NCBI GenBank assembly: GCA_028826165.1
Contig: JAPDFW010000067.1
Span: 186,001 to 250,000 of the forward strand
Length of the DNA: 64,000 nt
DNA from: Anaeramoeba ignava BMAN
Taxonomy: Eukaryota > Protista > Anaeramoebae
Direction of reading: 5' to 3'
The position numbers were made by a program, and so were the translations under genes. This document shows, in pieces, positions 1,491 to 58,424 of this stretch. Within the stretch, counting starts at the first letter, position 1. Each line of letters starts with the position of its first letter. Below the pieces are notes generated by a model. It searched no databases. It saw only the letters and a program-made list of their open reading frames with translations, and was not told the origin of the DNA.

Positions 1491-4400
1491 CCTTCAAATA
1501 ACATCCTATTGGAAAAAACAATCACAAAACATAACACCAACTAACTTTTTCGGTAACGAAAAAAAAGATTTCAGTAAAAACACTTCAAGAAAAAGACAAA
1601 TCTATTCCACTTTCCCATTCCGGTCAGATTTCATTGAAAACAAAGCAAAGGAATTTAGCGATCAAGCAACAATCGATTTCACACTTGCATCAATAGCACT
1701 TTGCGTGACACAATTCACACAATCACGAAACATATCACTAGCAGTTTGTTGTTACAACTCGTTCATCTACACAGATCAAGACTTCCATCTTTTGGAATTC
1801 AATCCGTATCTCCTGAATATACAAACAACAGAATCGCGCACTTTCAACGATTTGGTCACGAATATCGCACAGAAAAGAAAAGAAATCCAACCGTTCCAAG
1901 AATTCCCGTTTTCGGAATTTTTTTCAAGTGAAGAAATGCTTCAATCCAAATCAAAAGATGAAAAAAAAACGTTTCCTTGCAAAATTTTAGTTGTTTTTGA
2001 CCACGGATTTGTAACGGAAAAGATGAAGAACTTCGAGCTTATTCTGCGACATCACGATCCAAAACTTCAGTTAAAAACAAATACTCAATTCAATTTATCG
2101 TTGAATATTGACAGTAAATCAGAAACAAGCGCCCAAAAAAGAAAAACAAATCCGTTTTATTCCAAGCAGTATTTTGTGCAGGATTACTTCGACTTTGTCG
2201 TTAGTTTTGGATTTGAAGAGGAGACTAACAAGAAGATTGTCCCGAATTGGTTGTTTTTTGACCGAATTTTTTACAATAGCGAAAAAATCAATCAATTATT
2301 TGTGTGCAATTTCTACGAGCATTTCGCAAGAATCGCAAAGACGAGCAACAAGCAAACAGCGGTGGGAAGTGTGCCTGAAATAACGGGGAAAGAAGAGGCT
2401 GTTGTAGTGAATGAATGGAACAATATATCGGGGAAAAATTTCACAAAAACGAAAAAACTAGCATCACTGGGAATTCCGATGATTTTCCGCAAAATCACGA
2501 AAAAAAGACAAGGAGCAATAGCAATCCGCTCGAAAAACGCGAAGGTGACATACGAACAGCTTGAATACCGCTCGGATCTGTTTGCAGTTTATTTGCAAAA
2601 GGAGCTGAAAATACGATCAAACACAGTGATCGGGGTTTCGATGAAAAATTCAGTCGAAACAATAGTGGCGCTACTTGGGATAATCAAGGCAGGGTGCAGC
2701 TATATCGCGCTGAGACCGGAGTTCTCGGCAAACCTTTTGGCACGGATCATCCGGAAACTGGATGTGAAACATGTGCTGAGCGGTGCGGCATCAGCTGGTG
2801 TTTTTGAGAAACTAAAAAAAGAATCAAAAACGGAAATAAATACACATTTAATCACTGTGAATGAGTTGGAGTCTATTCTCAAACAGGTGCAGAGATCGGA
2901 AGTTCGCAAGACAAAATTCAAAGTAAAGGGCAATCAAGTGGCGATTGTTTTCCCTCGGTTTTCTGACGACGGCAAGCTCCAGTTCTTCACATTAACTCAC
3001 GCAAACATCATCACAAAATTCATCACAATTCAATCCTCAATTAATTTATGCAACGTAGTCGGGTTCTGCTCACCGATATATCACGAACAGTCACTGATCG
3101 AGTTGTGGGGCACGCTGATCAACGGAGGTAGAATTGTTGTCTTCTACATGAAAAACTTGCTCAGTTCCAAGTTTGAGGCGTTTATCCGACAATCAGGCAC
3201 AAAAGTGCTTACTCTCTCAACTAGTGTTTTCCAACAAATTGTTTCTCGAGACTCAACATTTATTCGCCAGCAACAACAGCCATCTATTGAGCACACAGAC
3301 CCGCAAACACAGAAAAGCACGTGGCCGTTCCATTTGTTTGATCTCCTGATGATCTACGGTGAACCCATTGCATACCGCAAATTTTTCGAGTTTGTGAAAA
3401 CGGAGAAGATGAGCCTTCCGAAGAAACTCGTCTATTGCTTCGGTACTCCGCAAACAGCATCCATTTTCGCACTTCTCCCCGTATGGGACGAGTTCCAATG
3501 GACAGGCAGGAAGGAGGTTGTTTCTGAAAACGAAGACGATGTCAAAGACGAAAAACAACTCCCGGTTTTCATCCCGAATATCCACTACTGGATCCACAAA
3601 TACAAAAGCAGCACAGGGTTTCTCCCAATAGGCACGCCGTGTAGCGACTGCGAGGTCTACGTTCTCAACAGCAAAACCCTCAAACCAGTGCCTTTTGGCG
3701 TCAGTGGCGAAGTTTATGTGTCTTGTCTTTCAATCGGCACTTTGTTGGATTACAACGGAAATGAAGACGAAAAAACCGACAAATTTCGCGCTCAATTTGA
3801 CAGAATTTTTGTCCCTAATCCATTCGAGAAATCCGATTCTGAGAACAAACTGCTTTTCAACACAGGAATTCACGGATGCATTCTTTCTAGCGGGAAACTG
3901 GAATTTTACGAGTATCAACAACCTCAGGAAATCCGTCAGGTGTTTGTCAACAGCGAGTTTGTGAATGTGAAGGCAATTGAAGAGGTTATCAAAAAACACA
4001 GTAAAGTCAAACAGGCAGTGGTTCTCGTTCGCGATGCAGAAAACTCGGAACGAAAACGCATTGTCGCATATCTGGTTTGCGAAGAGACAATCCCTCCTTC
4101 GTTCCAGGAGCTTTCGCAGTTCATCCAGAACAGACTGCCACAAAGTCACGTTCCTGTTTCTTATGTTTTTGTTGAAAAAACCCAATTTGGTTCTGATAAG
4201 ACAGAAATTTCGCGCGCAATGCTTCTTGCCAAATACGCACATGCGCAAGAAAAAACAAGCTCTACAACAGACACAACCGTCACAAGAAACGCAAATCAAT
4301 CTGCGCAGTTCAAACCCCCGAGTAATCCTACTGAGGAGTTTCTTTGCAAAACGTTTGCGTCTGTTCTTAATTACGAACAAGTCGGTGCGTCGGATAATTT

Positions 4401-7400
4401 TTTCGCACTCGGAGGCGATTCCATATCCGCAACAAGAATCGTCGCAAAGGCTCTTCATGCGGGATTGCGGTTCTCAACAGAAGATCTTTTCCTCAATCCA
4501 GTTGTGTCTGATCTAGCAGTCTTTATCGAAAAACAAAAGGAAAAGTTCCAGCAAAACATAGATTTCTCTGCTCATCACAGAAGATTCTTTGAGCAGCAGC
4601 TCCCAGAGCCGAGCCAATCAGAGCGTCTTGTTTTCATCAATCTCGACCACTCAGTGAATCTGAAGTATCTTAAAAAGGCTTTTTTGATGATCCTTGCCCA
4701 GCACGAAAATCTCCGATTGGTTTTCCCAGAAAATCATCCTCATTTACAATCTTTGGAGGATCTCACTCATAAAAAGAGCAAAAGACATCATAAAGACTCC
4801 TCTGTGTTTTCGGTGCTGAAACTGCCAACGAGCGAGATGGAGCCCAAACAGATTGGCAAACAATGCGCGAAGATCCAACAATCTCTCAGAATAGCAAAAG
4901 GTCCGTTGATAAAATTTGTTGTTTTTGTCGAGGACCAAACGCAGGACACAGAAGCAGAGAAGCTCAACAACGAGGATGCGTTCTCGATTTTCCATGTTGA
5001 GCAGAAACAATCCCAACAGGAAAAGACCGAGAAAGACTTTTCCAAAGACCATTTCTTGGCAATGATTTTGATCCACAATTTACTTGTCGACACCGAGTCA
5101 ATCAAAAAGCTCGTCTCCCAATTGCAAACAAACTACGAAACAGTCAGAAGCTCCTTTGAGAATTTTGTCGAGATCCCAGCACCATCTCCAGTGACTGAGT
5201 ACTACCACTATCTCAACTCCCAAAAAAAGCTAGAAATCACAAAAAAATCATACACTTTCTGGCAGACAATTTCAAACAGAAAGAAAAACTACGTCAAACC
5301 AGTCCCAAAAAACATATCCGAGGCAGGAACAAATTTTTACGAGGATCTGACCAACATCCGCGTCAGTTTCGACGACAAAACCTCGCATCTCATTTACTCA
5401 GAAATCGCTCGGAAAGACGAATACCAGATGGCCGACATCCTCGTGACTGGGATCGGTCTCGCTTTGACTGATTGGACATCCAGCATATACAACTTCATCC
5501 ATCTCATCGAGCCTCCCAATCCCCATTCGCAGAAAACACACGGCTTTATCGCACCGGTAGAAAACACGATCCCAGTTTTGATCGCCTTTACACAACCAAA
5601 TGTCGTAAAAGACAATATAAAGTCATTTGAACTGGTCAAAAAGCAATTGAGAGAATTCCGTTTGCATGTCCAACAGCTCAACAAGATCCTGTATTACAAC
5701 GATGCGCAGAACGCAAACGAAAGCGAGGATCTCGACTATAAAATGGAGTTTGAAAAACAAACTCAAAATGAAAAGCAAATTCAATCACCCTCGCAACAAC
5801 GCAAATCGTCCCAATCCGAGAAGCAAAAGGAGATTCTGACTTCGGGACTTGGCGCCGAGATACCAGACGCTAATCTCAATCTGTTCAAATCAGACGAAGA
5901 CGATGATGACGAGCAAACGGGAATGAGACAAGATGCTCCAGATTCTTCCGAGGACGAAGACATTTCCTTCTTGAAAGTCCCACAATCCAAACAGGAAGAA
6001 CTCAAAATCCTCTCGCAAGCAGAAATCGCAATACGCTTTATCGGAAACGTTGATTTCAACTCCTTCTCTCTCGGAAAAGTTTCCATTGATCCACTAACAG
6101 AACCCAAAAAATCACGAAAACTCAACTCCCCAAAAGCGCAAAACCCGTATTTGATTGAAATTATCAGCTTTGTTCAGCAGGGCTGCGTCTCTTTCAAGCT
6201 CATTTACAACAAGAAGCTTTTCAAAGCGGAAACCATCAAATCGCTTGCGAGAAACATGATGAAAATCTTGATCAAACTCTCGAAGGATATCCGCAAAGAA
6301 AACCAACACAAAAGCAAAAGCAAAAGCAAAAAAACAGAAAACGAGACGCAGGAAGAAAACGATATCTTTGCAAACTTCCCACTCGCAAAAAGTCTTACCG
6401 TAAGCGTCATCCGGGAGCTTTTTGAAGAGGACTCTCTTATCGAAGAAATTCTTACCCCATCTCAATTCCATCAGGAAACAATCCGTTTTTTCTTAAGAAA
6501 AGATCAGCTGTCAAAAAGTCACATTGCAAGTCAACTTCTTCTTCGGTTCACAGCATCCGAATTTGACGAGAACAAACTGCGCCAAGCATGCCAAATCTTT
6601 GTCGACCAGCATCCTGCGATGCGATCCTATTTTGTGCGCAACCAATCCAAGCAATCCAATATTCTTCATATAATCCGCAAAAAGGCAGAGATACCCTTTA
6701 GGTTTATGAAGTTTGAACAAATGGACGATACCTTCAAACAGGAAATTGCGCAGGAACGGCAGCACCCGTTCAAATTTTCCCATGCGCCGTTGATCCGCTT
6801 CTCTCTCTTCTCAATTGAAAAAGATTCCCTTTATTTACTTTCAATCGCATTTGAATCGTTTCTTCTTGATTTCTGGTCAATTCCTTTAATGATACAGGAA
6901 ATATTCTCCAAATACTGCGAACTCGCCTCAAATTCCACCGACGACAAAAAGGATCTTCTTCCCACTCTTCCCCATCCACAACAGATATCTCTCCACCAAA
7001 ATCTCCACAAAGAATACATTTCTTATGAACACAATCTTTCTTTGTCGAAATCAAGAAGATTCTACAGATCGTTTATGAAGGATTTCGACATCAACACCCC
7101 GATAATCCCGACCAAGGAAGGCGTCTCCAATTTCCAGCAATTACTCCTCAATCAAGAAAACATTGGCGAATTGAAAAGCCGCTCAAAAAGCCCGAACCTG
7201 TCTAACATGCAGCACAGTCGAAGTAATGAAAATGTCCCCATTTCACCCAAATTGGATCGTTCTCAAATTCCTGCCAAAAAAATAACACCGTCCGATATTG
7301 ATATCAAGGGACAGTTCTTTGTCAACACTGCAGAATTCAAGGAAATCAACGCGCATGTTGGAGCGGATTCTCTCACAAAAATCATCTCTTCTTTGCGAAC

Positions 7401-8490
7401 AAACAACCTTACTTTGAATTCATTTATACACTTTATTTGGGCGCTTACTCTCAACTTTGTGAATCCTAAAACCCCAACCTATTTCGGTACAACAATCTCA
7501 GGAAGACCAGCAGAGCTTGGCGAAGTTGCAGACAAAATTGTCGCCATGATGAGTAGAGTCCTCCCTATCAAATTCGAGCTCTACAAGGACAAGACTATCT
7601 TGGCTCATATTGCGCAAATTCAATCCCTTCTTCTCAAATCATCTCTCAACCCTCATGTTACAGACTCACGAATCCGCAAATGGTGCAAATTCCCCAAAAA
7701 AACTTATCTCTACAACGGCGGTGTTGTTGTTTTTGAGGGATATCCCAAAGACAGAATATTCCCCCTGCGTGATCTTGGTGATGAAAATTACGAGGTTGTT
7801 CTTGATCTTTCCAAATTGAATCCCTCCTTAGACATCATGTTCTCCAATCTCTCGGTCATGGAATCCTTAAGACATCCTCTTTCTCTTATCGTCTTCCCGT
7901 CGGGACAAGACTTGCTTGTGCGCATTGTGTACAACCAGGCACTTTTTGAAGAAAGAACAATTAATCGCTTGATTGATTTATTCACTCAATTTTTCAAATT
8001 GATTTCTTCATCATTCACAAACTTAGATAAGCCTATTAAGGATCTTCTCAGTAAATCAGAATCTTCCGATTTCATCCAGAAATCCCAAGACAAATCCCTC
8101 AAAAAAGATAAATCATCTCCCCAAATCGATCAATCCCCATCTCCATTGTCAAAAGAATCAGACAATTTGGATCAAGACCACATTTTCAAACAGGGATATT
8201 TAACAAAAAAAGGTGGTCATGGTTTCACTGCAAACTGGAGAAAGCGTTGGTTCATTCTTAAAAACGACCAGTGCTTTTACTACTATAAGTCCCAAGGCAC
8301 TGCACAACCTTCTGGTTTGATTCCAATGAAAGGTGCTTCCATTGAACCTCTTCCAAATCACAAAAAGAAAAATTGTTTCCAAATCAAAACAGAATACAGA
8401 AGTTATCCAATTTATGCTGAATCAAAACAAATTATGGATTCTTGGATTGATGAGATTACTAAATATTTAGCAAGAATTAACAAGAATTAA
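1491..8490 (+). CDS. NRPS-derived multidomain protein, last exon (5'-partial): C (second half) - A (degenerate) - T/PCP - E (degenerate) - C (DCL-like, degenerate) - PH
   Basis: Frame is open from 1492 (LQITSYWKKQ...TLASIALCVTQFTQSRNISLAV...TFNDLVTNIAQKRKEIQPFQEFPFSEF, C-domain-like). A-domain motifs: VTYEQL, IIKAGCSYIAL, LPIGTP...VYVLN...PVPFGVSGEVYV. T domain DNFFALGGDSI with Ser at 4420. E-like QHENLRLVF, HNLLVDT, DILVTGIGLALTDW, NFPLA. C-like QHPAMRSYF, APLIRFSL, LLDFWS, YFGTTISGRP. PH domain KQGYLTKKGG..NWRKRWFIL..AESKQIMDSWI at ~8180-8475. Confidence 0.9.
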
Positions 8491-13936: not shown

Positions 13937-16900
13937 ATGGCTTTCTTTAAAGGAATTTTTAAAAAAACAAAACAAACAAAAACAACAAAAACAACAAAAA
14001 ATTTTGATGTTTTTTCAAATGATTTTCCAATTGAAAGTAGTGGATTTTTAAATCATTCTCCATCAGGAGAAATAATAGAAGATTTATGGCAAACAAGAAA
14101 ACAAATAACAGACAATGTAATTTTTCAAAAAAGAAAAATTTCTCTTTAATAAATTTTAATTATTATTTTTTTTTGAAAAATTTTTAAAATTGGTTAATTT
14201 ATTTGTTTTTAAAGGATGCTTTAACTGAATGGTACATGAAACTTGGTACAACTTTTATTGAATTATATAATAATTGGGAACCTAATTATCAAGAAGATGA
14301 ATTTATAAAGCAAATTACACAAAAAACAAAAGAAGAAATGCAGAAGGAAGATCTTCAAAAAAATGAAAATAAACCAAAAAAAGGAAAAAGATTTAAATGG
14401 AAAAGAAAAGGAAAAAAAGATCAAAATAAACAAAATGAAGACGAAATAGATCCTGAAGTCTTAGAAAAAATTGTTATTCAAGAAGCAATCAATAAAGATT
14501 ATGCTCAACCTACAGAATTTATAATTCGATTTCTTCGTGTTTTAATTACTTTTAAAACTGATTTAATGAAAGGTAATTTTTAATTTTTTCAATTTATAAT
14601 TTTTCCAATTTAAAATTTTTTCAATTTAAAATTTTTTCATTAAGAAATTGAAAAAAGAATTTCAAATCAACAAGCAGAACTTAATATTTTAACAGCTGTT
14701 TCACTTGAAGTTATATCTATTTTATCTCGTTCAAAATTTAATAGAAATCGTTTAATCAATTATGGTTTATTTCAAGAAGTTGTTGAAATTGCAACTTTAA
14801 CAAATACTTTATTTTCTTTTTTTCTAAATAAGGTTTTAATCAATTTTTAATCAACAAAAATTTTTTGTGTTCATTTCCTTGTTTTTTCTTTCTTCAGGAT
14901 TTACAATCAAAACAAAAAGAAAAAGAAAAAGAAGATAAAATTATCACTTTAAATCTCTTTCAAACACAAAATTTATTATTGATTGAATTTCTAATTACAA
15001 AGATTTTAGATATAATTTCACATTTTTCAATGATTAAACCAACATATTTAAATGAATCATTTTTCTCAAATTTTTCCCAATCAGATAAATCTGATCTTGA
15101 ATGGATAATTAAATCAGGATTAATTGATTCACTTGTTAGTAAGTATTTAATTTTATTATTTTAAAAATTTTTTTTAAATATTTAATATATTTTTTTTAAG
15201 GCTGCCTTGAAAAAATGAGGAAATTAAATGAATTCGTTCTTTTTAATCAAATTCAATACAATATCCAAATCAATTTAATCAACACAATGCTTGTAATATC
15301 AAGTTCAGGTCTTCTTTCCAATGAAACATTTTACAGAATCACAGATATATTAATCGGAATGTTATTACGTCCAAATTTATCACTTCCAGGATTAAAAATT
15401 CATTCATTCGAAGAATCACAAACAAATAACCAAAATAACTCACAAGAAAAATCAGATAAACCAATAATAACAACTGATGTTCTTTACTATTTTTGGATCC
15501 CAAATTATCACCAAGAACACAATCCAGATTTATCTGGAAACGATCTTTTATCAACAGAACAAACTCAAAATATAGAATTTCAAATCAGAATAGTTATTCT
15601 TCAATTATTTAGGGAATTAATTGCTGATAATGCAAATGCAGAAGTTCAAGTCGGAAAAAATGTTAAGTTTTCTCATTTATGTGATTTTATTCTTTGGGTT
15701 GCTCAAAATTTTCCTTCTGATATTGTTGCCAGTTTTATTCAAGAGAATAATAATTTAATTGAAACAAAACTAACAGAAATTTCAAAAAAGAAAAAAGAGC
15801 AATTATTGGACCAAATCAAAAGACAATCAAAAGAAACTACTCCTATTCAATTTAATTTTAGTTCAAATATTGATTTCCGTTTGAATGAAAAAAATATTTA
15901 TGATCCTGAAGGTAAAACAAATAAATTTTTCATCCAAAAAATAAATCCCATTTTAAAATATCTTCTTTTTAAAAAGAATTCAAAAATAATTTACCAAGAG
16001 AAGTTCTTATAACCAAAAATTTTGACATTTCTCAATGCAATCGAATTACAAAACCTGTTCGTAAAGTTCAAAATGTTGACAATCCTTATATTCATAGATT
16101 ATTCCAAATTTTAGGAGATATTTGTCTTGAAAGTACAAATAATTCACAAGCAATTCGCCAATTAAAATCAAACCAAGAAAATATTTCAAATACAAATACA
16201 AATACAAATAAAAGCAAAAACAAAAACAAAAATAAAAATAAAAATAAAAATGAAAATGAAAATGAGGAAAAGGATGAAGTTTCACAATCATGGAAAAATA
16301 TTCAAACTTGGACTTCTACATCTGAAATTAATATGAGAATTAAAGATAGGATTTTATTTGTTTGCTTGGATTTATTTCATTATAATTTTCATAAATCATT
16401 CACAAATACAAACGCAAGAAATTTTGTACTTTCAATTTCTCCTCAACTTCAAGTAAATAACAAAAGCAAAAATGAAAAGATTAAAAAAAATAATTTTTGT
16501 TTTTAAATAATTTTGTTTTTTTTAGTATGAAGTTCTAATGCTATTCGCAAATAGTTTGGATCAGGAAAGTTTAGATCTTTTAGGATCAAGAAATTTATGG
16601 AAAATATTCTTTTCAAATTTTTTCTATTATGAATTAAATAATGATTTTATTGGACCTCCAAAATCAGAAGAATTACTTTTCCAAATATCTGATTATTTAT
16701 TCAAATTCATTACATATGTTGGTTCAAATGAAAAAATAACAAATATTGAGGAATGCAAAGCTTTAGTTAATTTAATCAAAGAAAATTGGTTTAATTTGAA
16801 TGTTATCACGCAAGCATTAGATTCATTGATAGTCATTTTAAAAAATGTTCCCAAAATGACAATATCTTCACTTTATCAAATTAAAGCAATCAAAATATTC

Positions 16901-19900
16901 ACCGATTTATCAAAGGATTTATTTGAATTTCAAACATTCCAAAATTGTTTAAATGAAGAACAAAAGAAGAAATATATTAATGAATGTGCTACTACTAAAG
17001 AATGGATATTTGAATCAGAAACCAAAAAATATTCGCTTGATTTGGTTTATGAGATTCGGCTCAAATTATTTGAGGTTATTGATATATTCTTCATTGATTT
17101 TGAAATGAGATCAAAATTTATTGAAGAAAATGACCAGAATTTAGCTTTAATTAAGCTATTATTGTGCCTACTTCTTGAGCCTCAAATCCAAAAATACTCA
17201 TTGTATCAATTGGCTAGATTTATGCTTGCTGCACCTGAAGAAACACCATCCTTAATTTGGTTTGAATTGTTCACATCATTTGTAGAATTTTTAATGTCTA
17301 TTCATCAAAAACAAGAAAGAATAATGTCTCAAAAATCACAAAGTCATAAATTCATTTTATTGATAAAATCCATTCTTTTTGCAACTTCTTCTTGTATTTT
17401 TCAACATCAAAACCCTTTGCAACAACTTTTTGTATCTGCGGGTTCTTTTAAAATGCTTGTCACATTTTTGAGTAGTTCTCTGTTTGGGAATAATTTAATT
17501 GTGGATGTTTTGAAAATGTTTATTGAATTGTTTCGAGGAAATAGAGAAAACATGCTTGAATTCAAATATGATGTTGGATACAAAAACTTGGAAAATTTGA
17601 TATATAATGCTGAGCTCCAAAAACCATCAATTTCAACTTATAATTTATTATTGAATATGGTTGTTAACAATAATTATTCTCCACCCATTTTTGAAAATGA
17701 AAATGATTTGGATAACGCGAATCAAAACGAGTATTATCATGATGATTATTTTAACGGGATGTTCCCATATATTGATTATAATTATTTTGATAAGGAAAAG
17801 AATTTTTTGATCCAAAATCCAGAAGTTATAATGATAATGTTTGAAATGTTTTCAAAAGGAAAAAGAAAAGAAGATTTGCAGATATTTTATAATTTGTTGG
17901 AAACATTTTCTGAAATTTGTGAAATGTCAATTCATAATGCATCTTGTTGTTGTGAAGTTGGACTTGTTTCTTTTCTTGCAAATTTGATACCGAATCTTCA
18001 ATCATATGAAGAATATTTCGAAAAAGAAAAAGAAGATGAAGATGAAGAGAAAAAAAAATTATTGCAAATAGTTCTTGAACAAACAATAAGATTACTTGGT
18101 GTTATTGGATCACATAGTATGACTGTCAAAGAATTGAAAACTTTGTTTATTTTGCTGAAAAGTTTGAAAGGAGACTTTCGTCCGCCTTATTCTCATTTAT
18201 TATTAGAAGCAATGCAAAAAATGCTTGGTTCAAAAAGTATTGACAAGAAAATACAACCAAAAGTATTTTTTGATTTCAATGGAAGATCATCATGTCTTGA
18301 AATACCACAACTTGATAAATGGCCATCATCAAAAGGATACTCGTTTTCAACATGGTTGAGAGTGGAAAACTTTGAAGATCCTTTAAGCAAACCAAATTAT
18401 GAACCAAGAATATTGAGTTTTTTAAATGAAAGTGGTCATGGTATTGAAATATACTTCAAATACAGGAAACAAGCAAATAATTCAGATCCAAAATCCAAAT
18501 CAAGCACAAATACAAACATCGAAAACGAAATTATACCAAATGTAAATCAGACAAAAACAAAATCCAGGAAAAAATATAAAACAATAAGCCTCAATAACTT
18601 GAAGTTGGATTTACAAGAGATGAATGAAAATAGTGAAGATCAAAATTTGGATTTGTCTCGGTATTCTGAACCCATTGCAGATTTAGTTTTGAAAGTTGTT
18701 TTGCCAAATAAAGTTGATTATTGCACTTTTCCCTTTTATATATCATTAAGAAAATGGTGTTTTTTCGCAATTACCCATTCATCACCAAGATGGACTTCAT
18801 CAGGAGAAGTTAAATTTTATATTGATGGTTTTTTTGTTGGCAAATATCCATTAGAATATCCAAATATTGACTTTCCATTGACAAAAAACAGGATTGGATC
18901 AAATTTCATCGTAAAGCAAAAAGATAATTCAAATACTCAAGGAAACCATTTTTTTGGGCAAATGGGAACAATTTATTTCTTTACAGATGCTCTTCATCAA
19001 ACACAAATTACAGGAATATATCAATTAGGACCTGATTATATGTCTTCTTTTGAAGATGCATCATTCAATTTAGCTTCAAACACACCAAATAGCCCAAGAA
19101 TAATAAGAAAAACGATGAGTTATTCAGGAAGTCCTCTTACATCTCCATATACTATCAACGCATTAGATGGATCTTTAGCAGAAAAAATATTTTTCAATTT
19201 CAATAGTAAAGCTTGCGATCTTCATTATTGTATTGACCAAAGTCCTGTTTCTGTAATTCAAAAGGCAAAAATTGTTGGAATGTTTAAGTATGTTTCAAGA
19301 GATTTGGAAGATATTATTCATTGTTTAGGAGGAATCAAAATATTATTCCCGCTTTTAGCTCAACTTGATCAACCAGCTGCTTCTCCTCAAAATTTAAAAT
19401 TTTTAAATATGGATAATTTTCCAAAAGAAAAAGAAAATGAAAATGAACAAAATCAAACAAATTTAATGGATTTTAATTCTTTAAAGCAAATGATTGATTA
19501 TTCAATCGATCCAAATATGTCAGGACAAATATTACAGTTAATCTTCCAAATGTTAGTTCAAAATCTATCTAATCAAGAAGATATGAAACGTTCTTATGGA
19601 TTTCAAATAATAAGCCATCTTCTACAAACATTTTCACCAAAACATATCACAATAAATGTTGTTAAATCACTGAAAACATTTATTATGTCAATTCAAAACC
19701 AAGATTTATTAACAGATTTAATTAACAATTTTGTCTTGGATTTCGATAATTGGATATATAGTAGTTTTGAAGTTCAAATCAAATTGATTAAACAAGTATT
19801 TTCGAAGTTATTAGTCCCAAATCCTTTAAATAATTTCCATGGTAAAATCTCAACTCAAGATATTATGAATATTCTTCGTTTATACTATTGGATTACAGCA

Positions 19901-22900
19901 GAAACTTATTCAAAAGGAATTGAGAATAGATTCCATTCAGTAACAAAAGAACTGATTGGAAAAAGACCTTCTCTTGAAGAATCAAAACAAATCCGCAAAT
20001 TGTTAGTTCAATGTATCACTAATTTGATTTTGCATTCACAAAATTCACAAGAAATTTCATCAGTCATTATGTATTCGTTTGCAATGATTGATATTAACCA
20101 TAGTGATGAGATTAAAGATATTCTTTTGGTTATTCATGATTTAATTCATACAGATGCTAAATGTAAGGAATGGTCAAATAATTATAATAAAGATTCTGAG
20201 AATCAAAATCAAAACCAAAAAAAGCAAATTGAAAAAGAAACAGAAGCTCAGAAATTGAAACTTCTTGATTCTCTCAATTCTTTCAAGTTTATGGATACTT
20301 TTATTATATTTCTCAATTCTGATGATGATGATCTTCGTGCATTATCATTGCATATTTTATATGATTTAGGGAATTACTCAGATTTATATCCGAAGAAGAA
20401 ATGGAAAAGTAGATTAATCTCAAAAAAAGGATATGAAACAATACATAACATTTTGATAAGTCATTCGTTTACAAAAAAAATATGTAATGTTTTGTTCTCA
20501 ATATTAGTTTCATCGCAAGTTGAAATTACTGATCAAGAAAAAAAGCATTACTATCTTATAAAAAGATCAAGTGTTTTAGAAACAATTTTTTATTTAATCC
20601 AGAATAACGATCCAAAAGAATTGACAGTCCATGCAACCAATACAATTATTAATATATTAAAAGGAAATGATACAAACAAAGAAATTATGATCAAGCAATT
20701 TGGATGGCAGCAATGGTTGATTGATATATATCTTTCCAAAATGAATAAACAGCAAACTGCTGAAGACGAACAAAATATTGAAGATGCGCAAAAATTTCAG
20801 TTGTTCAAAAAGCAAATTATTGAAGGGATTTTCACAATATTTCGTATCATCCATATTTATAGTATTTTTAGTGATAAAAACGGCACTCAATGCTTTGAGC
20901 AAACTACACATTTTGTTCAAAATACTTCGTGGGAAACGGAAAATATGGAAATTAATTTTTTGCGTAGACTTTATTCAGATATCATTTCTGAGATTAAACA
21001 ATTGATAAGCGAAAAGAAAGGAATTAAAAATGTTGTAACAAATTCAGCAATTTTTGCTGATAATTTCATTAGTTTGTCAGATTTGTTTTCCAAGTTTGTT
21101 AGCTTTACATTTAAAGAGATTCCAAAAACAACATCTGAAAATGCACCGATACCAACCACAGTATCATCAATCAAAGATGGAGAGAAAAAACTTTTACGAA
21201 AAGAATCAATAGCTCTGAACCAGAAATTCAAAAACAAAAAAACAATTAGAAGAACATTAGGGCCAGATTATTTCCGTATTTTAAATGAGTCTCGAAAATC
21301 ATCGAATCAAGAAAAAAAACCAAATGAAATGCAAGAGATTGACGAATTATTAACGATTCATAAGAATTATGGTGATTTTATTCTAACAAGTCAATTCAGG
21401 ATGAAGGGAATGGATTGGGAAGATTTGGATATTATTAAAGATTTTATCAATTTGTTTTCTGAAATTGGATTGGTTTACTTAACAAAAAGCAAGTCTGTGA
21501 TTTCTGAAAAGGAAAAATTGAAGTTTATTATCCAAAATATCATTTCTATAATTTTAAACGGTATCAAAAATTTTGAGATTGAGCAAAGTGATTGGTTTTT
21601 TGAAAAATTATACGATATCTTCGGCACAATCCAAAAAATATCATCTCTTAAACCTATTAGAAATGGGATTGCATCGATCATACTTTCATACTTATTTTCA
21701 GCACTTGAAGACTCAAAAAATCAAACAAAAAAACAAGGGATTAAAAGAAAAGACTCAATGAGTCAAATTCCATTACAAAATTTTGGAGGAAATGAACTTG
21801 AGATTTCTACTTTAGAACTTTTTGATTTTTCGCAAAAATCACCTTTATCGAGTGTATCAGAAAAAAAGCCATTTGAACAAATATTATTAGAACATATCCA
21901 AAAAATATTCAAGAAATCATATTCGTTTCTTGCAAGCACTGTTCGAGATAAATCAGGCATTCTTCTTCTTCCAAATAACAAATCAAACTCATATATTTTC
22001 CATCAAACAAAAGAGCAACTTATCGCAAGATTTAGCAGTCCTGATTGGAAATTTGCGATTGAAGATTTTTTCCACAAGGAAGTTGATAAATTTCGGATTG
22101 AAAAAGAAATTGAATGCAAAATTTATTCACAAGAAATTATAACTTCAGTTCAAGAATTGCAAATAAATATCAACAAGGAATTAACAGACAAAATGCAATC
22201 TATGAAAAAAACAACCAACGAATTGTTGAATAAATGGTTTCCATCAAAAGTGCGAGAGGAAAACCAGAGAATTGCGAAATTGGTTGAATTAAAAACAAAG
22301 AAGAAGGCAATATCCGCAAGAAAATGGACTTGGGCACTTAGAAGTGTAAGTAATGAAAGAGGACCTTGGGGATCTCGAGATTCCTCAATTCCGATTCATT
22401 GGAAACTTGACAGAACAGAAGATGATCATCATCGACGCAAAAAACTGAAACAGAACTATCATTTCGATAACCACTTTGATGCCTCAATAAGAAGAGATGA
22501 AAGTTCACGAGAAGCAGCAGATAAAATCATTATCGAAACATACGACAAAATGCAGCTTGAGAAAATGACAAATCAAGCGAAGAAATCACTTTCTGGAATT
22601 AAAATGATTGCAAATATTGATGGAGAAGATAATGCAGAAGATGAATTTGATGACAGCACAGTGAATTACAACAAAGATGAAATATCAACAATGGAATCCA
22701 ATGAAAACACACCCACAAATATAAATGTTAAGAAAGTTATATATCGAACAGAATGCTCTTTAGTTGCTCCGCTCACAATCATACCCGGAATTCTTGAAAT
22801 ATCAACAAAATCACTTGATTTTTATCCAAATAAAGAGGCTGCAATTGAAGCCAATAAGGATTCTACACTTGATAAATACAATATTCTTAATAGAAGTGCT

Positions 22901-25900
22901 GATACTATTTTTAAAGACCGTTCTTGGCAATTGAAAGAAATTCGAAAAGTTTATAAAAGATCATACAGACTAAGACAATCCGGATTGGAAATATTTTTAA
23001 CCAACAAGAAAAATTTCTTCCTTCATTTTCCAAAACAGAATAGAAATGTTGTTTTCCGAAAAATTATCAATTTGAAATTGCCTAATATTTTCAAAATTGA
23101 TTCAGGAAGACCTTCAGAATGGCTTCGAAAAACACATCTTACTAAAAAATGGCAGAAGAGACAAATATCCAATTTTGATTATTTAATGGAATTGAATGTT
23201 ATTGCTGGAAGAACATATAATGATGTTTCTCAGTATCCTGTATTTCCTTGGATAATCTCAGATTATGATTCAGAAGATTTGGATTTGAATGATGATAAAA
23301 CATTTAGAGATCTTTCAAAGCCTATTGGAGCGTTAAATGAAAAGAGGCTTCAAGAATTTATTGATAGATATGAAAGTTTCGAAGATCCAGATAATGTTAT
23401 TCCACCATTTTATTATGGTTCACATTATTCAAGCACTGGTAAATATTTTAATTTAATTTTAATTTCAAATTTAATTTTCAAAATGAATTTTAATTTCAAA
23501 ATGAATTTTAATTTCAAATTTAATTATAATTTCAAAATGAATTTTAATTTCAAAATGAATTTTAAATTTAAATTATAAAAGCAATTATTTTGTACTATTT
23601 AATCAGAATGGAACCATTTACAACTTTGTCAATTAAATTACAAGGAGGAAAATTCGATCATGCAGACCGTTTATTTAGTTCGATTGGACAAACATGGAAA
23701 AATTGTTTAACAAATTCTTCAGATGTTAAAGAATTGATTCCTGAATTTTATTATTTCCCAGAATTCCTTCAAAATTTTAATCAATTTGATTTGGGAAAAA
23801 CACAAAATGAATCAATAATAGGAGATATAATTCTTCCCAAATGGGCAAAAAATAGTGAAGATTTTATAAGAATAAACAGAAGAGCTTTAGAAAGTGAATA
23901 TGTTTCACAACATTTACACGAATGGATTGATTTGATTTTTGGATACAAACAAAAGGGAGAAGAAGCAAAAAAGGCATATAATATTTTCTATTATTTAACT
24001 TATGAAAATTCAGTTAATATTGATTTAATTACTGATGAAAGAGAAAGAAAAGCTATTGAAGAGCAAACTGAGTTTTTTGGACAAACACCAAGTCAAATAT
24101 TCACAAAACCACATCCAAAAAGATATTCACTTGCAGAATCAAATGCAATTCCTTTATATTGGGATTTTTCGAAATATGCAAAGATTTATACAAATTTTTT
24201 GGATTTAACAGATTCAGGAATTTTATTTGTTCATTTTGACAATCGTTTAACAATATTTGATAAGAAAAGATATCTTTCTGCATTCAAATTAATAGCAACA
24301 TCAACATCAACATCATCACCAAACAAATCAAATTCTTTATCTGGACAAACAGGAAATGAGAGTTTTGAAATTGGGAAGGAAGAAAGCAAACATCAACAAC
24401 ATCAACGTTCTGTCAAAAGCCGGAAATCATTTTACAAAATCAAGTCACGTTTATCTGTTAAATATAAAGCAAAACCTATTATATTTGATCAAGAAATTAA
24501 TAAAGATTTTCAAGATTTTAGTAAAATTTCAAATATTGATAAAAATCAAAATGAAAATCAAATTGAAAATAAAAATCAAAATCAAAATCAAAATCAAATT
24601 GAAAATCAAATTAAAAATCAAATTAAAAATGAAAATCAAAATCAAAATCAAAATCAAAATCAAAATCAAAATCAAAATGAAAATGAAAATGAAAATCAAA
24701 ATCAAAATCAAATTAAAAATCAAATTGAAATTGAAAATCAAAATCAAAATAAAAATCAAATTGAAAATCAAAATCAAATTGAAAATCAAAATGAAAATGA
24801 AAATCAAATTGAAAATGAAAATGAAAATCAAAATCAAAATCAAAATAAATTTGAAAATAAAAATCAAAATGAAAATGAAAATCAAAATCAAAATAAAAAT
24901 CAAAATAAAAATAAAAATAAATTTGAAAATGAAAATGAAAATAAAAATGAAATTAAAAATCAAAATCAAATTGAAATTCAAAATCAAAATCAAAATCAAA
25001 ATCAAAATCAAAATGAAAATCAAATTCAAAATCAAATTCAAAATCAAAATCAAAATCAAATTCAAAATCAAATTCAAAATCAAAATCAAAATCAAAATCA
25101 AAATCAAAATCAAATTGAAAATCAAAATGAAAATCAAAATCAAAATCAAAATCAAAATGAAAATGAAAATCAAAATCAAAATCAAAATCAAAATAAAAAT
25201 AAAAATAAAAATGAAAATGAAAATCAAAATCAAAATAAAAATCAAAATAAAAATCAAAATAAAAATCAAAATAATGAAAATGAAAATAAAAATGAAAATA
25301 AAAATGAAAATGAAAATGAAAATGAAAATGAAAATGAAAATGAAAATGAAAATGATACAGATACAGAAAATTTAAGTGAATCAGGAATCGAAAAAAATAA
25401 GCCAAAAGAAATGCAAAAAAGTCAAATTCAACCACAAGAAACAATAACAGAAATGACAAAACAAATAGAAAATGGAGAAGGACTTGTTTTTGAGGTTGAA
25501 TCATTGATGAAAGGAATCAAAAAAACAGTTGGAGTATCATTTGCATTTGGAATATCGAAGATGAGCAATTGTTTTGCAGTTTTAGAAAATGAAAAAATAT
25601 TTTTCAGTTGTGGATTTTGGGACAACAGCTTCAAATTAACAAATTTAGACAACTCCAAATTAATACAATCAATAACACAACATAAAGATATTGTAACATG
25701 TTTAGCAATTGATCATGAAATATTAGTAACAGGCTCAAGAGATACAACAGTAATGATTTGGAAAATTGATTTGAGAGAAGGAAAAGTAAAAGAAAAACCA
25801 AAGAATATTTTATATGGACATGATGATGAAGTAACAAGTGTGGATTTGAATCAAGAACTTGATATTGTTGTAAGTGGAGCCAAAGACGGAACTTGTATTA

Positions 25901-26328
25901 TTCATTCTTTAAGAAATGCTCAATATGTTCGATCAATTTTCATCAATGAGAATAATGAAAATAATAAAAATGACAGCAATACTCAATCAATAATATCAAT
26001 GCTTAAAATTTCAAATGAAGGAAATATTCTTGTTTATTCTGATAATGATTTATCTATTCGATTGTTTAGTATTAATGGAAAACTTCTTAAAATTATTGAT
26101 ACTTCTCAACATATTAATTCTTGGGATTTAACAAGAAATGACCAATATTTAATCACAGGAAGTGAACAAGGAGTTATACAAGTTCGTCAATTATGGGATT
26201 TGAAAAATATTTATAATTTTGAGTTTAATCATCCTATTTTATTTGTTTGTTTTACTTCTGATGAAAAACATATTCTTGCTGGTTTTGATAATGGAACCTT
26301 AATGATTGGTTCTTTATCTTTTAATTGA
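13937..26328 (+). CDS. BEACH-domain protein, neurobeachin/LRBA/NBEAL type (helical repeats, ConA-like domain, PH-BEACH, BEACH, WD40); 8 exons
   Basis: Phase-consistent exons: 13937-14116, 14215-14572, 14645-14832, 14898-15138, 15201-15911, 15977-16452, 16526-23438, 23582-26328. Motifs: [68 protein letters not shown]|[36 protein letters not shown], and WD repeats ([22 protein letters not shown]). Confidence 0.95.
24541..25352 (+). repeat. In-frame hexamer microsatellite encoding ~270 aa of (NQ/NE/NK)n within the BEACH protein
   Basis: AATCAA/AATGAA/AATAAA units. The frame stays open into the WD40 region. Confidence 0.9.
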
Positions 26329-35209: not shown

Positions 35210-37269
35210 ATGGGAAATGTTGATGCGGTAAAAAAAAAATATTCAGCAGAACAAATCAAAAATTATAAAAGACACATTCGAAAAAGTCCTGATGCAATTA
35301 CAGTTTGTAATACCAAAGGTGATTATATTGCAGTAAACAAACCAGCTTTGAAACTATTCCAAATGACTAGAAAAGAATTCTTACAACTCAATCCAGGAAA
35401 AGTTGCACCAGAATATCAAGAACACTTCAAATTAAAAAGTCAAGAAGTTGCCGGCATGGTTATTTCAAAAGCATTTGAGTAAATCAAAAAAAAATTTTTT
35501 TTTCTTCTTTTTTTCCATCTTTTAAAAAATTATTCACCTTTTGTTTTGATTAAATTAATTAATTAATTTAGGAGTGAAAGTGGAAGTTTTGATTTGAATT
35601 ATCAACTTCAAGATTCAACAGGAAAAGTTTTTTGGTCAAGAGTTTATGTAAGTTAATTTAAATATTTTATTTCCAAATATTTATATTTATTTAAATATTT
35701 TATTTCCAAATATTAATATTTATTTAAATATTTTATTTCCAAATATTAATATTTATTTAAATATTTTATTTCCAAATATTAATATTTATTTAAATATTTT
35801 ATTTCCAAATATTTATATTAATTTAAATATTTTATTTCCAAATATTAATATTAATTTAAATATTTTATTTCTAATTATTTATATTAATTTAAATATTTTA
35901 TTTCCAAATATTAATATTTATTTAAATATTTTATTTCCAAATATTAATATTTATTTAAATATTTTATTTCCAAATATTAATATTTATTTAAATATTTTAT
36001 TTCCAAATATTAATATTTATTTAAATATTTTATTTCCAAATATTAATATTTATTTAAATATTTTATTTCCAAATATTTATATTTATTTAAATATTTTATT
36101 TCCAAATATTTATATTTATTTAAATATTTTATTTCCAAATATTTATATTTATTTAAATATTTTATTTCCAATTATTTATATTTATTTAAATATTTTATTT
36201 CTAATTATTTATATTAATTTAAATATTTTATTTCCAAATATTTATATTTATTTAAATATTTTATTTCCAATTATATTTATTTAAATATTTTATTTCTAAT
36301 TATTAATATTTATTTAAATATTTTATTTCCAAATATTAATATTTATTTAAATATTTTATTTCTAAATATTTATATTAATTTAAATATTTTATTTCTAAAT
36401 ATTAATATTTATTTAAATATTTTATTTCTAAATATTAATATTTATTTAAATATTTTATTTCCAAATATTAATATTAATTTAAATATTTTATTTCTAATTA
36501 TTTATATTTATTTAAATATTTTATTTCCAAATATTAATATTAATTTAAATATTTTATTTCCAATTATTTATATTTATTTAAATCAAATTTGAAATAAAAA
36601 TCAAATAAGGTTACACCTTTAAATTTTGGAGGAACTGTTTGGGTTCAAGGATTAATTAAACCAATTTCACATCCTTTAAATGAAAAAGATGATCTTGATT
36701 TATTAATGCCAGATAGAAAATTTGTTGATGTTGTCCTAGGTGATCATGATGATGATAGTACTGATTCACAATCTACAACAGATCGCTCAACAACTCAAAA
36801 ATCAAATCAAAAATCAAATTCAAATTCAAATCCAAATTCGAATTCAAATCCAAATCAAAAAACAACATCTCAATTACCTTCTTTGGATCAAATATATTTA
36901 CTTGCAACATCTGAAGAAGATGAAATTATTGATCAAAACATTCATGATATTAAATCAATTGTTAGATCTCTTGATGATCCTAAAATTGAAAAGAAAGTTG
37001 TTGAATCTTTGAATACAATTCAAACAAATATCCAAAAAGCTACAACTAAATTAACTCAACAAATCAAATCCTTACAAGAAAGAATTAAATCGGAAACAAA
37101 TAGATTAAAAGAAAAATGTCGAAATTTAGAAGAATATGAACAGAAAAATTTAATTTCTTTTAAAAAAGAAAAAGAAAAAACTGAAAAATTAATTCAATTT
37201 ATTCAAGGAATAACAAAATTCGTTTCAAATCAAGAAATTCAAGAATTAGTTAATCAAGAAAAGAAATAA
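35210..37269 (+). CDS. PAS-domain protein, paralogue 4 (recent duplicate of paralogue 3); 3 exons
   Basis: Exons 35210-35478, 35572-35647, 36610-37269. C-terminal half nearly identical to paralogue 3. Confidence 0.85.
35654..36582 (+). repeat. Intronic 33-bp minisatellite, same unit as in paralogue 3 but a longer array
   Basis: TTCC landmarks at 35671, 35704 and 35737 give the 33-bp period. The intron spans 35648-36609. Confidence 0.9.
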
Positions 37270-49135: not shown

Positions 49136-49927
49136 ATGTTAGATTTAAATGATGATTTTTCTTATGAAATGGTGCAAAAATACCCCAAAAAAATGCCAAG
49201 AAAAATAATTAACGGAATTTTATATGAACTTCGATGTGCAAATGGGTTTATCAAAATATACACAGAAAAAGGGATTAATTACTGGGCAACCCAAACAGAA
49301 AATAGCTGTTTACTTCCTGATTTCAAACTACATTTTTCAATCAAACAAGAAGATTTTGCAAAAGCATGGAATATTTTAGTATTTTTATTTCTCGAGGAAG
49401 GACATGATCTTGCGATGAAAGTAAAACAAGGAAGATGGCCAGATTATATGAAAGGAAGAGAAATAACGGTTTATATGTATCAACACCATTCAAAATATGA
49501 AATGAATAAAGATAATCATTTGACAGCTAAGGATCAAAAAAAAAATTCAGTTTGGATCCGTTTTATTAAAAAAGCAGAAAAAAGACTTAAAAAAGCAAAT
49601 GTGAGATCTAACGGAATTTTTGAAGGTGATCATCCTCTTGGTTTGTTTACCAGTATTCGCAATGAGGCTTTTGTTAAAGTTCCTAAAAATTGGAAACCTC
49701 CTACTTCTTCTTGGTCTGGTTATGATTTAAGTGGTCTTGCTAAGTTTCATCTTGTTTACCCTCCTAATGATATGGGTTTTAATGCTGCTAATCATTCTTC
49801 TCCTTTTTTGAAAATTCGTCCACTTTCTTCCCAAATAAATTGGTCTTTTTTATGTTCTTATTTTTTCTTTTTTTTTATTTTTATATTGGTTTTGTATTTA
49901 GTGCGAACAGGATTAAATTCTGATTAA
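49136..49927 (+). CDS. OspF/SpvC/HopAI1-like phosphothreonine lyase homologue with a C-terminal transmembrane anchor; intronless
   Basis: Ordered motifs NGFIKI, DFKLHFSI (K64, H66), AMKVK (K95), GREITVY (Y113), FIKKAEKRLKKANV, GDHP (D165), FTSIRNE (R175, E177) and SPF parallel the SpvC motifs as I recall them: VFIH, DKFHISV, WKVT, GAQFTLY, FIECLESRLSENGV, SDVHP, YLSYRNE, EPF. Hydrophobic tail at residues ~236-256. Confidence 0.75.
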   Translation: MLDLNDDFSYEMVQKYPKKMPRKIINGILYELRCANGFIKIYTEKGINYWATQTENSCLLPDFKLHFSIKQEDFAKAWNILVFLFLEEGHDLAMKVKQGRWPDYMKGREITVYMYQHHSKYEMNKDNHLTAKDQKKNSVWIRFIKKAEKRLKKANVRSNGIFEGDHPLGLFTSIRNEAFVKVPKNWKPPTSSWSGYDLSGLAKFHLVYPPNDMGFNAANHSSPFLKIRPLSSQINWSFLCSYFFFFFIFILVLYLVRTGLNSD

Positions 49928-57260: not shown

Positions 57261-58424
57261 ATGGATGTTTATAAAATTCTTTTTATTGGTTCAGATTCAT
57301 CACAAAAAACACGATTTCTAACAGTTTATCAAACAGGAAATATTAACCCAGAATACATTCCACCATTTTTCGAAAATTTTATACAAACATTAGAATTTAA
57401 CGGCAAAAAACAAGTTTTTTCTTATTGGGATTCTAACGGACAAGAAGACGAAGACGAGAGCAAAATTCGCCTTCTTTCTTATCCTGGAACAAACCTTTTT
57501 GCTTTTTGTTATTTTATTGGTGATCCTTCTTCATTTAAATTAATTGAAACCTCTTTTTATCCTGAAGCTCATAAAGCAAATCCTTCTGCTTTTTCTATTC
57601 TTATTGGACTTGGCAAAGAAGAAAGATCCAAAAATCACTATAAAAAATTGGTTTCTCCTAAAGAAGCTCTTGAAGCGGTTGTCAGAATGAATTTTGCCCG
57701 CTATTTTGAATGTGACTTGAAAGATTATAAGTCAATCAAAAATGTTATTCTCGATCTGTCAAATTTTATTTGTTCTCAACAAAAAGTCAATCCAAGTCGT
57801 GATCTTGAAAAAAAACATGAAATCAAAATTGACATAAAAACAAACGAAAAGAAAAAAAACCAAAAAACAAAATCAAAATCAAAATCAAAATCAAAAACAA
57901 AAACAAAAACAAAAACAACTGACAACAAAAAAAATCTTTCTTATAAAATTGTTTTTGTTGGTGACGTTGAATCTCAAAAAACAAAAATTTTGTATTCGAT
58001 CAAAACATGGAAAAAAACTAATGATTACATTCCATCCTCAGTTGGTAATTTTAACAAAGAATTGAATATTGAAGGTGATAAAGTCATTTGTCTTTTTTGG
58101 GATACAAGTGGACAAGAAAATTTGGAAAATTTGCGAATTCTTTCTTATTCACAATCAGATTTAATTGTGTTTTGTTATTCTCGAAAAAATTTGGAAACTC
58201 TCAAAAATATTCAAAACAAATGGTTTCCTGAATCACAAAAATTTTGTCCAAAAGCAAAATCAATTATTTTTGGAATTGAAGGCAAAAAAAAAACGGAAAA
58301 TTTTCCAAATCAAAAAGTTGAAGAAGTTTCAAAATCAATTTCTGCAATTAATTCTTTTGTGATCAATAAATTTGATTTTGAAAATGCATTTAAAGCTATT
58401 GAAAAAACAATAAAATTAATTTAA
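57261..58424 (+). CDS. Protein with two tandem Rho/Rac-like domains, both with degenerate nucleotide-binding motifs; no CAAX
   Basis: Domain 1: YKILFIGSDSSQKT..EYIPPFFENF..WDSNGQED..IRLLSYPGTNLF..YFEC. K/S/T-rich linker. Domain 2: YKIVFVGDVESQKT..DYIPSSVGNF..WDTSGQE..LRILSYSQSDL..NIQNKWFPE. ATG at 57261. Confidence 0.85.
   Translation: MDVYKILFIGSDSSQKTRFLTVYQTGNINPEYIPPFFENFIQTLEFNGKKQVFSYWDSNGQEDEDESKIRLLSYPGTNLFAFCYFIGDPSSFKLIETSFYPEAHKANPSAFSILIGLGKEERSKNHYKKLVSPKEALEAVVRMNFARYFECDLKDYKSIKNVILDLSNFICSQQKVNPSRDLEKKHEIKIDIKTNEKKKNQKTKSKSKSKSKTKTKTKTTDNKKNLSYKIVFVGDVESQKTKILYSIKTWKKTNDYIPSSVGNFNKELNIEGDKVICLFWDTSGQENLENLRILSYSQSDLIVFCYSRKNLETLKNIQNKWFPESQKFCPKAKSIIFGIEGKKKTENFPNQKVEEVSKSISAINSFVINKFDFENAFKAIEKTIKLI

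Follow-up and report, generated by a model that had tools for sequence, protein, structure and literature searches.

A family of phospho-Ser/Thr lyase-like proteins in single-celled eukaryotes with a predicted tail-anchored member in Anaeramoeba ignava

The locus and its genes

The DNA analyzed here, called the window, is a stretch of 64,000 nucleotides from Anaeramoeba ignava BMAN (contig JAPDFW010000067.1, positions 186,001 to 250,000 of the forward strand). All coordinates count from its first letter. The features are listed in Table 1. The gene under study is a single-copy frame within the 64-kb window, and its translation of 263 amino acids is free of internal stops. The start codon is the first ATG past an in-frame stop; its distance from the stop codon of TBCD upstream is 111 bp, where a preliminary description made from the sequence alone had given about 110 bp. 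The flanks are eukaryotic as judged by Pfam, i.e. TBCD upstream and villin downstream on the opposite strand, and GT-AG introns are visible in the neighboring TBCD sequence. With a GC of 0.30 and a GC3 of 0.19 the frame is within the ranges of the adjacent TBCD and villin genes (GC 0.27-0.33, GC3 0.15-0.22). Translation and composition thus bore out the earlier view of a real, intronless, host-like gene. It is an intact protist gene and not a one-off, and contamination is very unlikely.

Four further features of the window are included in Table 1. The NRPS-like frame has a GC of 0.41 and a GC3 of 0.46, compared to about 0.28 and 0.2 in the host. This deviation suggests that the frame may have been acquired recently and joined to a eukaryotic domain.

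Table 1. Coordinates of the lyase-like gene, its predicted elements and other genes in the window.
Feature	Position	Strand	Remarks
Intact intronless ORF, 263 aa (P0001)	49136..49927	+	Belongs to the protist family of phospho-Ser/Thr lyase-like proteins
Domain with lyase fold, residues 1-232, predicted on the cytosolic side	49136..49831	+	Model pLDDT 91.8; superposition
G37-F38-x-K40 ... Y49 ... Q53	49244..49294	+	Family-specific N-terminal motif
D62-F63-K64-L65-H66	49319..49333	+	K64 = SpvC K104/VenL K51; H66 = SpvC H106/VenL H53, predicted acid
K95	49418..49420	+	SpvC K136/VenL K80, predicted catalytic base; roles as described in PMC4159009, PMC8341899
G107-R108-E109-I-T111-V-Y113	49454..49474	+	R108 at VenL K103/ThurKC K117; Y113 = SpvC Y158
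G164-D165	49625..49630	+	D165 = SpvC D201/VenL D137
S173-I-R175-N176-E177-A-F179	49652..49672	+	R175 = SpvC R213; E177 = SpvC E215
Y208-P-P-N-x-x-G-F-N216-A-A-x-H-x-x-P223	49757..49804	+	Family-specific C-terminal motif, candidate substrate-binding element
Predicted single C-terminal transmembrane helix, tail-anchor type, residues 236-257	49841..49906	+	Short tail after
NRPS-like ORF, 2184 aa, intronless	1936-8490	+	Adenylation, carrier and condensation domains, terminal PH domain
Neurobeachin/BEACH gene	16538-26328	+	Two long frames, low-complexity insertion
Two similar ORFs, about 185 aa	34264-34818, 36706-37269	+	Both with the same weak Pfam matches below threshold; probably paralogues
387-aa ORF	57261-58424	+	Two tandem Ras-family GTPase stretches

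The protein has the fold of bacterial phosphothreonine lyases

The preliminary description had read the protein as a tail-anchored lyase of the OspF/SpvC type and had named structure prediction with Foldseek, a homologue search and a phylogeny as checks. By itself, the protein matched neither Pfam VRP3 nor NCBIfam NF052433 nor SpvC among the PDB sequences, and a tblastn search of plasmids gave no match. Because single-sequence searches miss SpvC, the link to the lyases needs a profile or a model. A profile of 148 family sequences was run against 177,635 PDB sequences and retrieved VirA (E 6.4e-8), OspF (4.6e-6) and SpvC (2.2e-5). Nothing further was below E 0.01; ThurKC came next at E 0.67. 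A profile of 10 family sequences agreed on VirA, OspF and SpvC and on the aligned residues. As a control, the window protein scored 267 bits on a family profile built without it, on which the best of 500 shuffles reached 4.8 bits and the reversed sequence 4.2 bits.

Individual members approached the described families to different extents. At E≤0.1, 37 of the 148 matched Pfam VRP3 and 36 matched RamC_N; two matched HopA1 at E about 0.06. Relative P0129 passed the Pfam VRP3 cut-off of 25 with 32.2 (30 scanned), and the best of 18 relatives scanned reached 24.9 bits against the NCBIfam cut-off of 250 bits. The top score in the ESM Atlas was 0.87, below the bar of 0.9, and the VRP3 and RamC_N clusters at 0.81-0.83 were taken as a lead only. 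DPP9, which appeared in a phmmer search of the PDB (E 0.007), was rejected; it comprised two weak pieces and the model does not support it.

The AlphaFold model of the window protein had a pTM of 0.84 (pLDDT in Table 1). Foldseek returned ten matches at E≤0.001, all of them VirA, SpvC or OspF, and LanKC/LanL chains came next; for this predicted model the E values of the SpvC-type lyases were 3.7e-6 to 4.4e-5. VIA-align against 48,161 representative chains resulted in a tie between SpvC (Z 13.4, rmsd 3.5, 173 aligned) and ThurKC (Z 13.0, rmsd 4.1, 163 aligned). Behind them were CuvL (Z 12.5), SalKC (11.9), HopA1 (10.5) and LxmY (9.9), and at Z about 7-8.2 eIF4E (eIF4E5), a non-enzyme with the common fold. 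The model superposes on residues 54-241 of SpvC and 29-213 of ThurKC. A second family member, modeled separately, had identical top structural matches. A viral structure library contained no match at E≤0.001. Superposition on SpvC and the family profile thus support the lyase fold that had been claimed. Within the phospho-Ser/Thr lyase superfamily the family represents a new branch from eukaryotes, predicted to work in the manner of the OspF/SpvC and LanKC lyases but belonging to neither group.

Active-site residues and family motifs

Conservation was examined in an alignment of 242 sequences, of which 187 span 80% or more of the core; 55 fragments were left out. Residues K64, H66, K95, Y113, D165, R175 and E177 align with SpvC K104, H106, K136, Y158, D201, R213 and E215. 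Their codons are at 49325, 49331, 49418, 49472, 49628, 49658 and 49664, so all seven had been located correctly in the preliminary description, and their SpvC-like order is upheld by the profile alignment. Together with R108 they are all kept in 181 of the 187 full-length members, the closest of which shares 49% identity with the window protein. Individually, H66 and D165 are conserved in 186, Y113 in 185 and K95 in 184. From the fold superposition and the profile alignment we infer that the catalytic side chains share one pocket.

An equivalent of SpvC R148 had been considered not obvious. A counterpart does exist. Position 108 is Arg in 186 of the 187 members and Lys in one. R108 (codon 49457), in G-R-E-I-T-x-Y, aligns with the Lys of G-K-x-x-T-x-Y in the three LanKC/LanL-type proteins used for this comparison (L081, L082, L083), and the SpvC-type protein has Ala in this column. 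The Lys of this motif is required for activity in VenL (K103; PMC8341899), and in ThurKC K117 is described as the counterpart of R148 (PMC10604976). As judged by alignment, R108 is the putative holder of the R148 role, exerted from the position used in lanthipeptide synthetases. According to the mutational data given in PMC8341899, exchange of VenL W50, K51, H53, K80, K103, D137 or R149 lowers or abolishes activity; each of the seven has a counterpart in the protist family. The Trp in front of the first catalytic Lys (VenL W50) is present in 144 of 148 relatives; the window protein has F63. The predicted wiring of the active site is a hybrid with the W-K-x-H and G-R of the lanthipeptide type and the RNE of the SpvC type.

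For SpvC R220 the earlier doubt was justified. In the family alignment no column after R175 exceeds 30% K/R, i.e. a linear equivalent is lacking. Position 40 is K or R in 136 of 148 members, and K40 may be a candidate stand-in. In the experiments cited, OspF R218A is inactive (PMC13273362), ThurKC R191A stalls (PMC10604976) and VenL R156 is dispensable (PMC8341899). The missing R220 is the main objection to reading the protein as an active lyase.

In SpvC the phosphotyrosine pocket is described as formed by K134, K160 and F100 (PMC4159009). The respective family columns contain G/A in 166, Y/F in 169 and T/L/S in 144 of 187 members. A D-motif-like pattern is absent from residues 1-35 of the window protein; it was detected in 10 of 148 members compared to 5.2 expected from shuffles. 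With the pocket, the docking motif and R220 all missing, there is no support for a MAPK pT-X-pY target or for the MAPK-directed OspF/SpvC reading of the preliminary description. Y49, Q53, D62, E109, Y208, P209 and N216 are family-specific and near-invariant among the 187 members. They suggest a conserved substrate which differs from MAPK loops.

The C-terminal membrane helix

The hydrophobic end of the window protein has a 19-residue Kyte-Doolittle mean of 2.70 at residues 238-256, compared to a maximum of 0.79 in residues 1-225, and is followed by a tail of 6-7 residues. In the model, residues 236-260 form a helix. With a lone hydrophobic helix in roughly the last 30 residues and none earlier, the protein has the predicted arrangement of a tail-anchored protein. 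Thus, the earlier proposal of a tail anchor stands as a prediction for the window protein and does not extend to the family as a whole. With a 19-residue mean of at least 1.7 in the last 50 residues as a rule, 59 of 187 full-length members have a C-terminal hydrophobic helix; 6 have CaaX-like ends and 4 have MGC starts. The other 118 carry no membrane signal under these simple rules. Since three signal types occur in separate branches, being close to a membrane seems to be important to some members, though it is not universal.

A family spread across protists

A single-sequence search of 147 candidates yielded 9 relatives at 34-45% identity; for 4 of the 9 a PF03536 match had been precomputed. 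A profile of those relatives matched 154 of 2644 candidates. The homologue search, carried out as a profile search, returned 519 cluster representatives at E≤0.001, and 135 of these were still matched at E≤1e-30. The matches listed comprised the best 150 of the 519 representatives and 120 of the 154 candidates. Among the matches listed were the metamonads Anaeramoeba flamelloides and Paratrimastix pyriformis, the opisthokonts Didymoeca costata and Lithocolla globosa, and Platysulcus tardus (Stramenopiles). Also listed were the amoebozoans Pelomyxa schiedti, Protostelium nocturnum and Nematostelium gracile; the dinoflagellates Symbiodinium pilosum, Ansanella granifera, Polykrikos kofoidii and Amphidinium massartii; and the rhizarians Lotharella globosa, Chlorarachnion reptans and Paulinella micropora. 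No animal, fungus or plant was among the named matches listed, and this type of search cannot prove absence. The named members are all annotated as hypothetical or unnamed, and most remaining matches are nameless. Since many named members stem from transcriptome assemblies the family is expressed.

At several of 46 metagenome loci the neighboring genes are eukaryotic (RabGAP-TBC, EF-hand, SKIP/SNW, BTB), and among nine loci examined one relative (L045) has a GT-AG intron within the first motif. In six of seven loci tested (L041, L050, L051, L062, L067 and L070) in-frame TAA/TAG codons are mostly at Glu columns; in the seventh, L029, the pattern is not clear-cut. The positions read as Glu include the invariant E109 and E177. 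Reading TAA/TAG as Glu fits the code of peritrich ciliates. The family lacks annotation and occurs in many lineages of single-celled eukaryotes. The claim that the protein is eukaryote-encoded holds; what had been missed is that the gene is no isolated case, its family being common among protists and apparently old.

A recurring partner gene was not found among 40 neighboring ORFs from 14 loci, and therefore the neighborhood does not point to a substrate. Single neighbors were an APH/EcKL-type kinase (L042) and a dual-specificity-phosphatase-like gene (L064). Longer fused forms of 633-2000 amino acids were absent from 2661 candidates, which is weak evidence. Two arrangements were seen in predicted proteins which are either real fusions or gene-calling errors, lyase plus membrane helix plus Arf GTPase (P0176) and lyase plus DUF1810 (P0108, P0155).

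Phylogeny, bacterial and viral copies

A tree was calculated with IQ-TREE (LG+G4, 216 columns) from 51 rows taken from 104. The A. flamelloides protein is the sister of the window protein (99/89), and the pair joins Paratrimastix (99/95). Grouping with two other metamonad proteins points to vertical inheritance. Dinoflagellates (96/95), protosteloids (100/98) and chlorarachniophytes (100/100) are each grouped as well, and the family is split from six bacterial outgroup rows at 100/100. A clean vertical history is contradicted at other points. Rhizarians and amoebozoans are not single clades; Paulinella is apart, two Pelomyxa copies are apart from the protosteloids, and the opisthokonts have 74/95. 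Five loci were translated with ciliate table 6 and have Q for E at some sites, hence branch support may be inflated there. The backbone is weak with 16 of 48 inner branches open; consequently, the age of the family and the direction of transfers can only be inferred.

Bacterial and giant-virus copies are few and are placed inside the family. A gammaproteobacterial MAG has two near-identical copies beside LRR and RCC1 genes, a further bacterial MAG has one with a CaaX-like end, and so does a giant-virus bin. In the first of these MAGs (G001) the lyase gene is duplicated together with the next gene of 744 amino acids; the copies lie on a single contig at a distance of about 50 kb, one of them near an IS-type transposase-like ORF. 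Among the sampled Gammaproteobacteria 12 of 401 match at E≤0.001, and around the second MAG (G002) 2 of 41; in both samples full strength was reached only by the seed genome. A single group comprising the copies of both MAGs and their nearest rows was rejected (AU p 0.00013; the group was picked after seeing the tree). Four unnamed, probably bacterial proteins (P0084, P0092, P0094, P0145) form a further clade. Most simply, the family is old in eukaryotes and left them by several transfers; several ancient transfers into eukaryotes are a less simple possibility. With less support, we suppose vertical inheritance in metamonads and probably more than one passage into bacteria associated with protists and into a giant virus.

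Small-genome Gammaproteobacteria also contain divergent, mostly stand-alone lyase-like proteins with the motifs GWKxH ... G[K/R]xxTxY ... RND/RYD (L006, L007, L012, L016-L020, L024, L026, L085). They are below the Pfam cut-offs; we regard them as candidate lyases, and no outgroup is nearer to the protist family. Bacterial-type members carry one and the same extra domain, with the motif FHFFYEP, on either side of the lyase domain: N-terminally in P0031, P0135 and P0137, C-terminally in P0092 and P0145, and at 2962-3948 in L003. It was modeled as ferredoxin-like plus helices. For a suspected identity with the NisB elimination domain (Lant_dehydr_C) there was no clear sign: Pfam and the PDB profile returned nothing, the Atlas score was 0.78, and NisB reached Z 6.9 against the domain model among many equal background matches.

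Mechanism and alternative explanations

We consider it probable that the protein is an active endogenous protein phospho-Ser/Thr lyase whose target is likely other than a MAPK. It would be a stand-alone enzyme, tail-anchored on a membrane, that strips phosphate irreversibly from a protein target. With the SpvC mechanism (PMC4159009) as a model, and by analogy to SpvC, VenL and ThurKC, K95 would remove the alpha-proton of pThr or pSer, while K64 and Y113 would polarize the carbonyl and stabilize the enolate. H66, itself held by D165, would protonate the leaving phosphate, which may be bound by K64, R108, R175 and perhaps K40. The product would be dehydrobutyrine or dehydroalanine, which cannot be rephosphorylated. 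The substrate might be an endogenous, conserved, membrane-proximal phosphoprotein, read, with less support, via Y49/Q53/D62, E109 and Y208-N216.

Four other explanations were weighed. That the enzyme is an endogenous equivalent of OspF, i.e. an irreversible off-switch of MAP kinases acting at the pT-X-pY loop, is unlikely. VirA, SpvC and OspF are the best matches in sequence and fold, R175-N176-E177 is identical to the RNE of SpvC, and the uniformity of the family suggests a conserved substrate, as MAPKs are; however, the columns of SpvC K134, K160 and F100 are replaced in most of the 187 members, the first 35 residues contain no D motif, and R220 is missing. Quite unlikely, too, is a beta-elimination on another leaving group, be it a phosphodiester adduct on Ser/Thr (nucleotidyl, phosphocholine) or a membrane-located phosphate ester that is not part of a protein, in repair or defense. 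Intracellular bacteria install nucleotidyl or phosphocholine marks, and the named hosts are mostly phagotrophs or hosts of symbionts. Copies are present in effector-like bacterial contexts and in a giant-virus bin. The loss of one of three phosphate-binding arginines would suit a singly charged group, and the extra invariant residues Y49, Q53, D62, E109 and N216 could shape a second pocket. Yet we know of no characterized member of the lyase fold that eliminates other leaving groups, the basic residue at position 40 may restore the charge, and VenL is reported to handle monoesters without its R220 counterpart (PMC8341899).

A non-catalytic scaffold with a lyase/eIF4E-like fold that binds phosphopeptides or nucleotides is very improbable. 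The fold is common to eIF4E (Z 8.2), HopAI1 is described as little active on peptide libraries (PMC13273362), and F63 replaces a needed Trp; against this stand the near-complete conservation of K95, H66, D165 and Y113 and the report that eIF4E has no counterparts of K136 and H106 (PMC4159009). There is hardly any probability left that a bacterial effector gene was acquired recently or that the sequence is a contaminant. The gene is intronless, close family members are present in two bacterial MAGs, and the window also contains the NRPS-like gene, which by its GC3 looks recently acquired. But GC3 of the lyase gene is host-like, its product groups with the A. flamelloides and Paratrimastix proteins, full-strength bacterial matches are as rare as 1/401 and 1/41, each the seed itself, and the bacterial copies are not monophyletic. 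A recent import is thus largely refuted for the window gene; early eukaryotes may have received it by an ancient transfer.

The preferred reading of an active endogenous lyase may be extended, tentatively and with somewhat more doubt than confidence. Eliminylation would be a native and ancient modification in eukaryotic signaling with this family as its endogenous lyase, present early, kept in many protists, lost or unseen in model organisms, and taken up by protist-infecting bacteria and giant viruses; it would provide the LanC-like proteins of eukaryotes with the dehydroamino acids on which they act.

Significance

In the full-text literature searched, to which most subscription journals and supplements do not belong, no description of the protist family was found. 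The preliminary description had known of no characterized endogenous eukaryotic member, and none was found in print. In PMC4159009, SpvC- and VenL-type lyases are reported from bacteria only and BLES03 is proposed by fold as a eukaryotic lyase; it is the only eukaryotic candidate that we found in print. Where the subject is touched in PMC11775630, no human eliminylating enzyme is said to be known; in the relevant statements of PMC13273362 the chemistry is treated as not known in host cells; and the corresponding passages of PMC13151050, PMC8341704 and PMC9934072 name bacterial lyases only. Eukaryotes likely have their own version of this irreversible phosphate-stripping chemistry, acting at the membrane. 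The family offers small candidates from many eukaryotic lineages, predicted to be soluble after truncation and with a nearly complete active site, and existing phosphopeptide-library assays are suited for direct tests. If active, these proteins would add an irreversible eraser to eukaryotic phosphosignaling and constitute a new source of dehydroamino-acid-forming enzymes.

Comparison with known systems

With OspF, SpvC, VirA and HopAI1 (PF03536 VRP3; NF052433; PDB 2q8y, 3bo6, 3i0u) the protist protein has the fold in common (Z 13.3-14.1), the stand-alone single domain and the counterparts of K104, H106, K136, Y158, D201, R213, N214 and E215. It differs by an identity of only 17-20%, by the absence of the phosphotyrosine pocket, the D motif and R220, and by extra motifs; the role of R148 has moved to a beta-strand position (R108) in the protist family. 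Further, the protist protein is nuclear-encoded with a predicted tail anchor, whereas the bacterial proteins use type III secretion. The lyase domains of LanKC/LanL have the same fold (Z 11.9-13.2) and the signature W-K-x-H (as family consensus) plus G-[K/R]-x-x-T-x-Y. In contrast to these, the protist frame stands alone without a fused kinase or cyclase; neither fusion was present in 30 long family members scanned, and a recurring precursor peptide or kinase gene was not seen among the neighbors scanned. The protist family has R at the position of VenL K103, RNE in place of RYG, and no counterpart of ThurKC R191.

HopA1/LanY of the class V lanthipeptides (PF17914; 4rsw, LxmY 9dk1) are similar as stand-alone lyase folds (Z 9.9-10.9), yet the match is weaker and the protist family has no LanK partner. 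BLES03/C11orf68 (PDB 1ztp) is broadly similar in fold, yet with Z 5.5, rmsd 4.3 and 137 aligned residues it is at background level, and the family profile did not match it among PDB sequences at E≤10. As described in PMC4159009, BLES03 lacks the catalytic His and is linked to the lyases by fold alone, whereas the protist family has a profile link and the full acid/base set.
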